A stretch of 24,000 nucleotides of DNA, from assembly GCA_024304885.1 (NCBI GenBank), contig JALJOM010000003.1, positions 382,110 through 406,109 on the forward strand. Direction: 5' to 3'. Origin of the DNA: Beijerinckiaceae bacterium. Its GTDB lineage: Bacteria > Pseudomonadota > Alphaproteobacteria > Rhizobiales > Beijerinckiaceae. Shown here piece by piece: positions 13,178-14,229 of this stretch; positions within the stretch are counted from its first letter, which is position 1, and the number at the start of each line of letters is the position of its first letter. A model generated the notes under the pieces. It searched no databases and had not been told where the DNA came from. It worked only from the letters and a program-made list of their open reading frames with translations. Made by a program: the position numbers and the translations under genes.

Positions 13178-13534
13178 TCATGGAATACCCATCGCCTCTA
13201 CAAAGTCCTTCGCCTCTTTCAACCCGGCGCGCGTGATAGCACGGTGAATTTTGATCGCTTCGATTTTCTGCGCGCTCATTAAAGCTTCGATGAAATCCTT
13301 CGCCTGTTCGAGGCTCGCACCTGTAACCTCTCGATAAATCTTAATGGCATCAATCTTATTGGCGTTGCCGATGCGTTCTGCCAATTGTTGGTATGCATCC
13401 TTTTGGGGAACCACCGTTATTGCGTTTTCGATTGCAACCATACGCTCCTGAATTTCAGCAATGACTCTATCACGTGGGTCCGAGCTCTGCCGCATTTGAA
13501 AGCTCGCATTAGCCTGCGTGATAGGGTTGCTCAC
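13178..13534 (-). CDS. Protein with two tandem ribosomal L7/L12 C-terminal-domain-like modules (probably the 3' part of the gene above it)
   Basis: ORF track 13178..13534, with a GTG start and no SD. KIDAIKIYREVTGASLEQAKDFIEAL and KIEAIKIHRAITRAGLKEAKDFVEAM match the K[IV][22 protein letters not shown] core of L7/L12 CTD. It is in frame with 13592..14032. Confidence 0.55.
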   Translation of the reverse strand: MSNPITQANASFQMRQSSDPRDRVIAEIQERMVAIENAITVVPQKDAYQQLAERIGNANKIDAIKIYREVTGASLEQAKDFIEALMSAQKIEAIKIHRAITRAGLKEAKDFVEAMGIP

Positions 13535-13591
13535 TTTGTAGTTAGGATTTTTAATTGCTCTGGCAGAACCTATTACACGCTCTCTAGCTTG

Positions 13592-13996
13592 TTAAATGCT
13601 TTGCCAATCCGTCAGGTCAACAAAAATAGTACGATGAGCTACAGTATCAAAAGGCAGCGCTGTGCCTGCCCTTGCGATATGAATCGTGGGCTTCTGGGTT
13701 GAGTGTCGGATTCCCAATTCATAAAATGCATTTGGATTCAGGTCGGTAAGGTCGGCAACGACCAGCTCAGCATTGATGATATCGCTAATAACCCTATCGC
13801 CGATCATGCCAGGGTCCGCGTCCTCGTCCGCGCGCCTCACGACATAGTTAAACTCCTCGTTCTGCAGGACGTGCTTTATTATGGCGTTGAGGAGCATGTC
13901 AGAATGCTTTCGCTCCACGCTTCCGTCTTTGCCGATCGGTCCGACAACGAAGCAAAGTGGGCCGTCGCCTTCGGTCAATTTCTTTATGTTAGCCAT
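13592..13996 (-). CDS. Nucleoside 2-deoxyribosyltransferase-like / TIR-like domain protein
   Basis: ORF track 13592..14032; the likely ATG is at 13996 (MANIKK...). LCFVVGPIG...DRVISDIINAELVVADLTDLNPNAFYELGIRHSTQKPTIHI is the Rossmann-like pattern with the conserved Glu of NDT-like domains. It ends at a TAA that is in frame with the downstream ORF. Confidence 0.6.
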   Translation of the reverse strand: MANIKKLTEGDGPLCFVVGPIGKDGSVERKHSDMLLNAIIKHVLQNEEFNYVVRRADEDADPGMIGDRVISDIINAELVVADLTDLNPNAFYELGIRHSTQKPTIHIARAGTALPFDTVAHRTIFVDLTDWQSI

Positions 13997-14229
13997 TTTT
14001 ATCTTCGATCGTCGGGGCTGCGCACGGTCCATGTAACCCGGGGCGCGTGGATGAAGCCTAGCTTGCGATACTTTAGTCCAAATGCAATCAAGTTTACATC
14101 ACTGTAAAGATGGGCGAACACCGTACGAAATTGCAGGTTGTTGACGGTCTCTTCGAGCGGCCTCCCAACCTGGCGACTTACCCCACTCCAGCGCGGATTC
14201 TGGGCGAGGTCCAGACGCGGCATGCCGCT

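Follow-up and report, generated by a model that had tools for sequence, protein, structure and literature searches.

The type VIII Thoeris effector ThsI combines a 'CMP hydrolase' domain (CMP, cytidine monophosphate) with tetratricopeptide repeats (TPR); its activator is cyclic ADP-ribose (cADPR), and it confers protection from phage (bioRxiv 10.64898/2025.12.03.692087). Active members of the TIR-DrHyd-SLOG clade cleave or transfer the N-glycosidic bonds of nucleotides, including nicotinamide adenine dinucleotide (NAD+), and a distinct TIR version occurs in small Firmicute phages, usually adjoining a SLATT gene (Iyer et al., PMC9503650). Here, we describe a minus-strand gene in a 24,000-nt stretch of a Beijerinckiaceae genome (GenBank assembly GCA_024304885.1, contig JALJOM010000003.1, positions 382,110–406,109; hereafter the window) that is interrupted by a single in-frame TAA. 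Its intact form would encode a Rossmann-like N-glycosidase followed by a conserved helical linker and a swappable C-terminal module, which in the window consists of two hairpins of the kind found in ribosomal protein bL12 (L7/L12). On balance, the locus is probably a single-gene conflict element that moves horizontally and whose copy here was inactivated recently; in such an element, a predicted N-glycosidase would be joined to a variable sensor tail.

A Rossmann-like N-glycosidase serving as an abortive-infection effector is the logic common to the nucleoside 2'-deoxyribosyltransferase (NDT)-like retron effectors (Retron-Eco1/Ec86) and the TIR effectors of CBASS, Pycsar, and Thoeris, and the family described here would share it. 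Unlike those effectors, the family comes with no reverse transcriptase, no non-coding RNA, no cyclase, and no other partner; no PADLOC retron model and no Rfam family was found in the window, and no reverse transcriptase was present in the neighborhoods examined. In CapRel-type fused toxin-sensor defenses, a constant N-terminal enzyme and a variable C-terminal module are encoded by a single, prophage-borne gene. The format of the present proteins appears analogous, whereas their enzyme fold is unrelated. Neither the architecture nor the solo family was found described in PADLOC, Pfam, NCBIfam, or the searchable literature, and a recent systematic TIR survey explicitly left standalone TIR proteins aside. 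A preliminary description of the locus, made from the sequence alone, had been unable to place the architecture in any described system, and this judgment was borne out by PADLOC and the searchable literature. We regard the format as new, namely a solo, tail-swapping candidate effector of the DrHyd/NDT type with an unusual bL12-hairpin tail.

The N-terminal enzyme domain and its described relatives

Structures were modeled with AlphaFold for a 72%-identical homologue, P0001 (mean predicted local distance difference test score [pLDDT], 80.7), and for the window's own 118-amino-acid (aa) open reading frame (ORF). In the P0001 model, five parallel strands (residues 2–7, 40–44, 67–71, 93–98, and 112–115) formed the sheet of a three-layer, Rossmann-like alpha/beta fold, and long helices followed. 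In the PDB, the proteins that Foldseek ranked highest for this model were DNPH1/RCL and nucleoside 2'-deoxyribosyltransferases (E values of 5e-3 and weaker; target-normalized template modeling scores of 0.55–0.67), and in BFVD the top match was a siphovirus protein of 303 aa that bears the name 'CMP/hydroxymethyl CMP hydrolase' (298 aligned columns, E 3e-10). Two PHROG families, both of unknown function, also matched (PHROG 3634 at E 5e-39 and PHROG 10872 at E 3e-31), as did PADLOC model PDLC00733, labeled 'Effector / TIR' (E 2.9e-10); no further PADLOC model, the retron effector models included, matched at E<=1. The window protein gave no match at E<=1 to the Pfam TIR families, and TIR structures were absent among the top 50 PDB matches found by Foldseek and ranked below NDT-type matches in BFVD. 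The N-terminal half is thus closest to the DrHyd/NDT/DNPH1/'CMP hydrolase' branch of the TIR-DrHyd-SLOG clade. The NDT/TIR-like domain with a conserved Glu that the preliminary description had recognized was in this way supported by Foldseek, hhalign, and PADLOC, and narrowed to the DrHyd or 'CMP hydrolase'-like type.

All of 120 close homologues had Glu93 of the NPNAFYELG motif, and in a set of 148 representatives it was conserved to at least 90%. In hhalign comparisons, the segment GDR...ELVVADLTDLNPNAFYELGIRH aligned with GDR...ADVVVAEVTQPSLGVGYELGRA of human DNPH1 (sequence entered by hand), with YELG falling on YELG; Glu93 also aligned with the motif IYELGVRH of a protein carrying the Pfam TPR-S domain. 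The Glu aligned with Glu93, in the loop or helix that comes after the third core strand, is what we take to be the catalytic glutamate of the NDT/DNPH1 family, and Glu93 is accordingly the predicted catalytic residue of the family described here.

DNPH1/RCL, the NDTs, and the MilB-type CMP hydrolases (PF05014) were the best structural matches, and their strand-loop-helix YELG motif aligned with that of the window protein through DNPH1. The family differed from them in several respects. The window protein scored only 12.2 bits against Pfam Nuc_deoxyrib_tr (PF05014), below the gathering score of 28.8, and this model was weakly matched in only 3 of 120 homologues; the family has an additional linker and tail; and its genes occupy mobile, low-GC (guanine-plus-cytosine), solo settings instead of metabolic operons.

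Among named relatives, the strongest was the TPR-S protein, which is plasmid-borne. This 402-aa protein of Escherichia coli pKMi029_2, annotated like other such proteins on plasmids as 'TRAFs-binding domain-containing protein', is followed by two TIR-domain genes, an arrangement that corresponds to type VIII Thoeris. The family profile aligned with its N-terminal domain at 97.1% probability (hhalign; E 5.7e-11, 34% identity over 97 columns). The family and ThsI share homologous enzymatic domains, including the motif ADxxxxNxNAxYELGxRH, and both place the enzyme at the N terminus and, behind it, a plausibly regulatory module without catalytic function at the C terminus. In contrast to ThsI, the window protein and its 120 homologues lack TPR-S as judged by Pfam, which did find it in the plasmid protein; no TIR gene occurred in any neighborhood listed, and no partner gene was conserved across the 17 loci compared. 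The family has instead its own conserved linker (SNPITQANASF...DPRD) and a short hypervariable tail.

A constant module with variable tails

A family profile was searched against 1.84 billion cluster representatives (50%-identity clusters), of which 19,804 matched at E<=1e-3, 8,003 at E<=1e-10, and 1,955 at E<=1e-30. Almost all matching representatives had a length of 200–315 aa, and the match was restricted to profile positions ~7–200, that is, to an N module made up of the enzyme domain and the linker. This module was 65–80% identical between proteins with unrelated tails. The tails themselves were highly diverse: 208 of them fell into 138 clusters (BLASTP E<=1e-4), the largest being the L12-hairpin type (n = 39). 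Among the tails of 120 close homologues, Pfam recognized Ribosomal_L12 in 25, Agenet/Tudor in one, and nothing in most. The linker helices were placed at residues 120–182 of the P0001 model with low to moderate pLDDT. Members consisting of the N module only also exist (P0113 and P0075; 189 and 212 aa), and such short natural variants retain the near-invariant SNPITQANASF/DPRD segment.

The tail encoded in the window matched the Pfam model of the bL12 C-terminal domain (CTD), Ribosomal_L12 (PF00542), in two stretches with 54.7 bits against a gathering score of 25.9. These stretches reached only profile positions 9–37 of 67 (29 positions); the CTD's beta strands and its third helix are absent. 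Within the hairpins, the pattern conserved in bL12 is kept (K-[IV]-x-[AV]-IK-x-x-R...GLKEAKD-[FL]-VE). In both AlphaFold models, the tail was purely helical with pLDDT >90, and Foldseek with the tail model returned no bL12 chain from the PDB and nothing better than E = 2.1. Pfam coverage, the models, and Foldseek thus gave no indication of a complete alpha/beta bL12 CTD fold. The dimerization and L10-binding domain of bL12 (Ribosomal_L12_N) gave no Pfam match, and the NCBIfam bL12 equivalog TIGR00855 scored 45.3, below its cut-off of 84.4. A profile search of PDB sequences yielded only marginal coiled-coil and bL12 matches, and a search with the tail alone against a set of 5.8 billion proteins gave nothing beyond the 87-aa ORF of the window itself and a single weak match.

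The tail is thus a duplicated bL12 helix 4–5 hairpin and not a bL12 CTD; in sequence, the resemblance is real and extends to positions conserved in bL12. The preliminary description had proposed two tandem mimics of the L7/L12 CTD; the duplication held, with both Pfam stretches above threshold, and the resemblance was reduced from the whole CTD to the helix 4–5 hairpin. The window tail shares with bL12 two such hairpins with the K..IK..R...GLKEAKD.VE pattern, and differs from it in the missing N-terminal dimerization and L10-binding domain, the partial CTD profile, and the all-helical predicted fold. NCBI and JGI records give intact members of the family, P0008 and many JGI entries among them, the name 'ribosomal protein L7/L12', a misannotation caused by the tail hairpins. 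The bL12 hairpin also occurs in Pfam DUF6793, in 'Phage_blade', and in several PHROGs. Separately, we noted that gp15 of Dinoroseobacter phage vB_DshP-R7L (locus L027, 2477–2743), an 88-aa early protein annotated as 'ribosomal protein', has the bL12 helix 4–5 hairpin; its gene sits between RNAP1 and RNAP2, and similar proteins are found in the N4-like roseophages Ruegeria phage V13 and Sulfitobacter phage AX.

Helices 4 and 5 of bL12 form its translation factor-binding surface. The L12 subfamily, and only this subfamily, could thus comprise translation-coupled effectors, in which the hairpins would bind EF-Tu, EF-G, IF2, or RF3, or serve as a decoy for a phage factor that attacks or mimics bL12, and the enzyme would be gated by that binding. 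We think this unlikely, despite the retained bL12 residues in the hairpins (identities in Table 1), the above-threshold Pfam score, the prevalence of this tail type among close relatives (39/208 tails; 25/120 Ribosomal_L12 matches), and the small early proteins of N4-like roseophages of alphaproteobacteria, which show that bL12 mimicry with the same hairpin exists on the phage side. The partial profile match, the all-helical models, and the failure of Foldseek to find bL12 with the tail model argue against it. As a principle for the whole family, translation coupling is out of the question, because the same N module bears more than 100 unrelated tail types, of which the L12-like tail is just one.

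A wider version of this idea is that the family represents an unrecognized class of one-protein immune sensors, in which a DrHyd N-glycosidase would be gated by interchangeable 'bait' tails that mimic phage-targeted host proteins, the L12 subfamily being a decoy of the factor-binding surface of the ribosomal stalk. Here, the L12 decoy would be set off through engagement by a phage factor or by a phage-encoded L12 mimic, as in the N4-like roseophages, or through a change in how many translational GTPases are free. We offer this as a speculation to which we give a low probability; if true, it would tie the status of the ribosomal stalk and of translation factors directly to the depletion of nucleotides or NAD+.

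The interrupted gene

The minus strand from 14032 to 13178 forms one reading frame with a sole internal stop, codon 135 of the gene, and is translated as ...FVDLTDWQSI-stop-QARERV..., continuing QARERVIGSARAIKNPNYKVSNPITQ (Table 1). The ORF detected mechanically downstream of this stop opens at GTG 13534, which is preceded by attaaaaatcctaactacaaa and lacks a Shine-Dalgarno sequence. A run of 137 stop-free codons after the TAA has a chance probability of ~7e-4 at the local base composition. The start is likely ATG 13996 and not 14032, because homologues begin just before LCFVVGPIG and the gene caller applied to Logan contigs gives a 134-aa product. On all of these points, the preliminary description, which had proposed a single gene of about 272 codons from ATG 13996 with one ochre codon, a GTG-started downstream ORF without a Shine-Dalgarno sequence, and an improbably long open frame, agreed with our results.

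Table 1. Features of the interrupted gene and its surroundings in the window (positions are those of the 24,000-nt stretch).
Feature	Position	Strand	Basis or remark
Whole interrupted gene	13178..13996	-	272 codons including the internal TAA, plus terminal TGA 13178–13180; one frame, intact full-length homologues
N-terminal part (residues 1–134), predicted Rossmann-like DrHyd/NDT/'CMP hydrolase'-like domain, strands 1–5	13595..13996	-	AlphaFold, Foldseek, hhalign, PADLOC, PHROG
GAA of Glu93, motif DLNPNAFYELGIRH, predicted catalytic glutamate	13718..13720	-	Conservation; alignment to DNPH1 and the TPR-S protein
In-frame TAA, codon 135	13592..13594	-	GAA/GAG (Glu) in homologues; same TAA in two other assemblies
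Conserved helical linker (residues 136–200), near-invariant YKVSNPITQANASF.MRQS.DPRD and long helix; end of constant N module	13397..13591	-	Invariant columns, alignments A1–A4
L12-like hairpin repeat 1 (residues 213–239), NKIDAIKIYREVTGASLEQAKDFIEAL	13280..13360	-	Pfam Ribosomal_L12; 12/27 identical to E. coli bL12 64–90
L12-like hairpin repeat 2 (residues 243–269), QKIEAIKIHRAITRAGLKEAKDFVEAM	13190..13270	-	Best Pfam stretch; 14/27 identical to bL12 64–90, 16/27 to repeat 1
Low-GC cassette carrying the gene	13100..14150		GC 0.47–0.51 against 0.60–0.70 in the flanks; similar contrast at most homologous loci compared
HigB-like (Gp49; 14562–14885) and helix-turn-helix antitoxin-like (14230–14565) pair, directly upstream, neighbor outside the unit	14230..14885	-	Pfam; not conserved beside homologues

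The conceptual fusion matched 477 database proteins, the best of which were uninterrupted (261–297 aa) with 60–72% identity and 93–99% query coverage. Every close homologue inspected was a single ORF rather than two separate genes. In the alignment, the stop occupies the position of Glu in the DW(H/Q)SIEQAR motif of the homologues; the window reads AGC ATT TAA CAA GCT where homologues have AGC ATC GAA CAA GCT or AGC ATT GAA CAG GCA. Read from these codons, the lesion is a single G>T transversion that turned Glu135 (GAA) into TAA. A check across 13592–13594 found the same locus, with 99.96% identity and the identical TAA, in Logan assemblies of two separate public read sets (SRR31724217 and SRR31369334). 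The TAA is common to three assemblies and therefore reproducible, and a sequencing error was rejected as its source. At 112 columns conserved to at least 90% among 50 intact homologues, the window protein departed from the consensus at four (L>M, K>R, L>V, and A>I, all conservative), and the intact homologues themselves at 0–9. By this comparison, there is no sign of decay besides the stop, and the near-consensus sequence means that the lesion is either recent or tolerated.

The copy in the window is most simply a dead gene, that is, a young pseudogene, rather than a tolerated split or readthrough gene. It is most likely non-functional, because the TAA cuts the linker and the tail off the enzyme core. 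The preliminary description had left the stop as either recent or tolerated; the absence of other decay upheld that choice, of which the tolerated half is the less simple. Recoding or suppression of the TAA was rejected, as no transfer RNA (tRNA) gene and no Rfam family or recoding element was found in the window.

A working split gene, in which the 134-aa enzyme core would act together with a tail fragment started at GTG 13534, ATG 13495, or ATG 13441, or in which the TAA would be read through at a low level, seems to us rather unlikely. The lack of decay, the stability of the TAA in three assemblies, the N-module-only members P0113 and P0075, the AGGAG before ATG 13441, and the 87-aa and 105-aa ORFs called by NCBI and Logan, respectively, would fit such a gene. 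The three assemblies are nearly identical, however, and hence lend no evolutionary depth; the close homologues inspected are all single ORFs, the stop removes the SNPITQANASF/DPRD segment that even short variants retain, the AGGAG consists of codons of a conserved Q-E-R, and the window has no tRNA or recoding signal.

Some further observations concern the reading frames of this gene. The AGGAG lies at 13445–13449 on the minus strand, 3 nt before ATG 13441 (13439–13441; Met186, MVAIENAI...), and may be incidental, being made of the conserved Q-E-R codons. The 87-aa ORF from ATG 13441 was called by the NCBI annotation (P0273) and the 105-aa ORF from ATG 13495 by the Logan gene caller. Two copies in metagenome-assembled genomes were frameshifted, near residues 123–137 (locus L019, 2042–2565) and residues 108–110 (locus L020, 10001–10530); either genuine loss of the gene or faulty assembly could account for this. 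A conserved antisense ORF was also considered and rejected, since the antisense ORF cluster is most simply a by-product of the conserved coding sequence.

Genomic settings and the conflict reading

The gene lies in a low-GC cassette, in a genome of about 65% GC, and is followed downstream by aroC on the same strand; the Gp49/helix-turn-helix pair is upstream, also on this strand, and argG is further upstream on the opposite strand. An AT-rich locus beside a higBA pair had been noted in the preliminary description, and both the dip in GC and the pair were confirmed; the pair proved not to be a conserved partner, being absent beside the homologues in the neighborhoods compared. A functional link with higBA was rejected for this reason. 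An imperfect direct repeat of 18 nt with 83% identity (13139–13156, GGATCGATGCGTGGGCCG; 14235–14252, GGCTCGAGACGTGGGCCG) flanks the low-GC cassette and could be an insertion scar or a chance occurrence. Upstream of higBA, a 121-aa ORF (14979–15344, minus strand) gave a sub-threshold match to a CCDC90-like/DUF1640-type coiled coil (30 bits against 33.5), and it accompanies higBA and the pseudogene on 2.7-kb Logan contigs. Elsewhere in the window, ORFs of 1216 aa (20296–23946, plus strand) and 859 aa (1076–3655, minus strand) had no Pfam match and are perhaps spurious, being open only through the high GC content and lying across genuine genes in other frames.

No conserved partner gene was found among the 17 homologous loci compared. 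In 11 of 14 loci, the GC content of the gene was 8–19 points lower than that of its flanks; in the other three (L015, L016, and L018) the difference was only 3–8 points. One chromosomal copy abuts an IS200/IS605 transposase, and another follows a DUF2188/DUF2442 pair, which, like the pair in the window, resembles a toxin-antitoxin module. Homologues with 33–43% identity occurred in 52 phage records, chiefly of temperate Streptococcus and Staphylococcus phages. The homologue of Streptococcus pyogenes prophage 315.2 lies between cro and the repressor gene, on the repressor/integrase strand, and that of Staphylococcus aureus phage SA13 is a lone reverse-strand gene within the replication module. 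A further 83 plasmids carried a homologue, Rhizobium megaplasmids among them.

One chromosomal site recurred. The ribonucleotide reductase gene nrdJ was found 120–160 bp upstream of the family gene, on the same strand, in Bradyrhizobium JYMT SZCCT0428, BRP22, and CP088089 and in Rhodopseudomonas parapalustris, and a fragment of nrdJ was found upstream at a fifth locus; the window and 10 other loci had no such link. In loci L001 and L008, a hairpin and then a T-run come after the stop codon of nrdJ, whereas the T-runs of L005 and L006 are shorter. The family gene has its own, non-conserved upstream region. An operon with nrdJ was rejected, as these elements separate both genes. Copies at this single site in Bradyrhizobium and Rhodopseudomonas carry different tails. 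Together, the hairpin and T-run, the gene's own leader, and the differing tails point to a hot spot rather than an operon at the 3' flank of nrdJ, and it appears to be a hot spot of insertion.

Related arrangements were seen near this site and elsewhere. An identical family protein was encoded in two Bradyrhizobium genomes, with nrdJ directly upstream in CP088089 and a Tn7-like set (TnsA-like, TniB, and TniQ) upstream in GCA_054063135 (comparison of L004 1–9500 with L005 6115–9879). A 171-aa ParB_N-like gene recurred downstream at nrdJ-linked loci of the Bradyrhizobium type (L005 12753–13268; L028 3440–3955) and was not conserved elsewhere. Two copies with an L12 tail, on unrelated contigs, adjoin pyruvate/2-oxoacid dehydrogenase genes (L002 2651–7178; L030 9620–13108), a neighborhood that may be a second recurrent insertion site.

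The proximity of nrdJ and the closest solved folds, which are hydrolases of deoxynucleoside monophosphates (dNMPs) and deoxyribosyltransferases, would suit a housekeeping or accessory enzyme of nucleotide salvage, a DNPH1/MilB-like N-hydrolase of dNMP or CMP tied to ribonucleotide reductase. We judge this very unlikely. The hairpin and T-run after nrdJ and the non-conserved upstream region speak against it, and the gene is sporadic (12 loci in 185,579 species genomes in a narrow pattern scan), has a GC content below that of its host, and bears different tails at the same nrdJ site; moreover, nrdJ is absent from the window and 10 loci, and homologues reside on prophages and plasmids. The remotest alternative, to which we give hardly any weight, is a counter-defense or competition factor of mobile elements, with an enzyme that would destroy immune nucleotide signals (e.g., of the cADPR type) or hit rivals and a tail that would provide targeting: temperate phages and plasmids do carry homologues and TIR-DrHyd-SLOG enzymes act on NAD+/ADP-ribose-derived molecules, but the gene of prophage 315.2 lies on the lysogeny-side strand, a better fit to the protection of the lysogen than to counter-defense during the lytic cycle, most copies are chromosomal, solo, and without an associated phage, and viruses are poor in DrHyd and TIR domains relative to host immune systems (Iyer et al., PMC9503650).

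We prefer the reading of the family as conflict effectors because a constant enzyme head is combined with a hypervariable tail in solo genes of foreign base composition that are carried by prophages, plasmids, and hot spots, a combination typical of conflict systems, and because the enzyme domain is homologous to that of a validated Thoeris effector. The family is on these grounds a good candidate for a one-protein anti-phage defense. Gene structure, mutation, domain homologies, family size, tail hypervariability, and mobile contexts are observations. A polymorphic secreted toxin was also considered and rejected: no trafficking domain was recognized by Pfam, no formal signal-peptide prediction being included, and the catalytic motif lies in the constant part.

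Several points weigh against the conflict reading. The Foldseek E-values against the PDB are weak (5e-3 and weaker), and the window protein remains below the gathering score of PF05014. Most chromosomal neighbors are housekeeping genes, and the phage-borne homologues could serve the phage otherwise, in nucleotide metabolism or counter-defense. The literature yielded no activity, toxicity, or phage phenotype of any family member. For the copy in the window, the absence of decay beyond the stop is also compatible with a gene that works as two pieces.

Under the conflict reading, catalytic activity, substrate, defense role, and sensing by the tail are inferences from homology and context. The enzyme domain would cut NAD+ or a (deoxy)nucleotide at its N-glycosidic bond, so that an infecting phage would be starved or the cell arrested. 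The variable tail would hold the enzyme off until it bound a specific trigger, as in fused toxin-sensor proteins, and the linker might have a role in oligomerization.

The copy in the window should carry a pseudogene annotation, and intact members are currently mislabeled in public databases as ribosomal protein L7/L12. The L12-hairpin tail would be a case of ribosomal-stalk mimicry in a conflict protein, of which we found no description. If the intact members are active, they would make up a family of ~20,000 clusters of single-gene systems on prophages, plasmids, and chromosomes that reuse the enzymatic domain of ThsI without a signaling partner. The turnover of the C-terminal module on a near-constant enzyme suggests a direct-sensing arms race; if this is true, the family would be a natural library of recognition modules.

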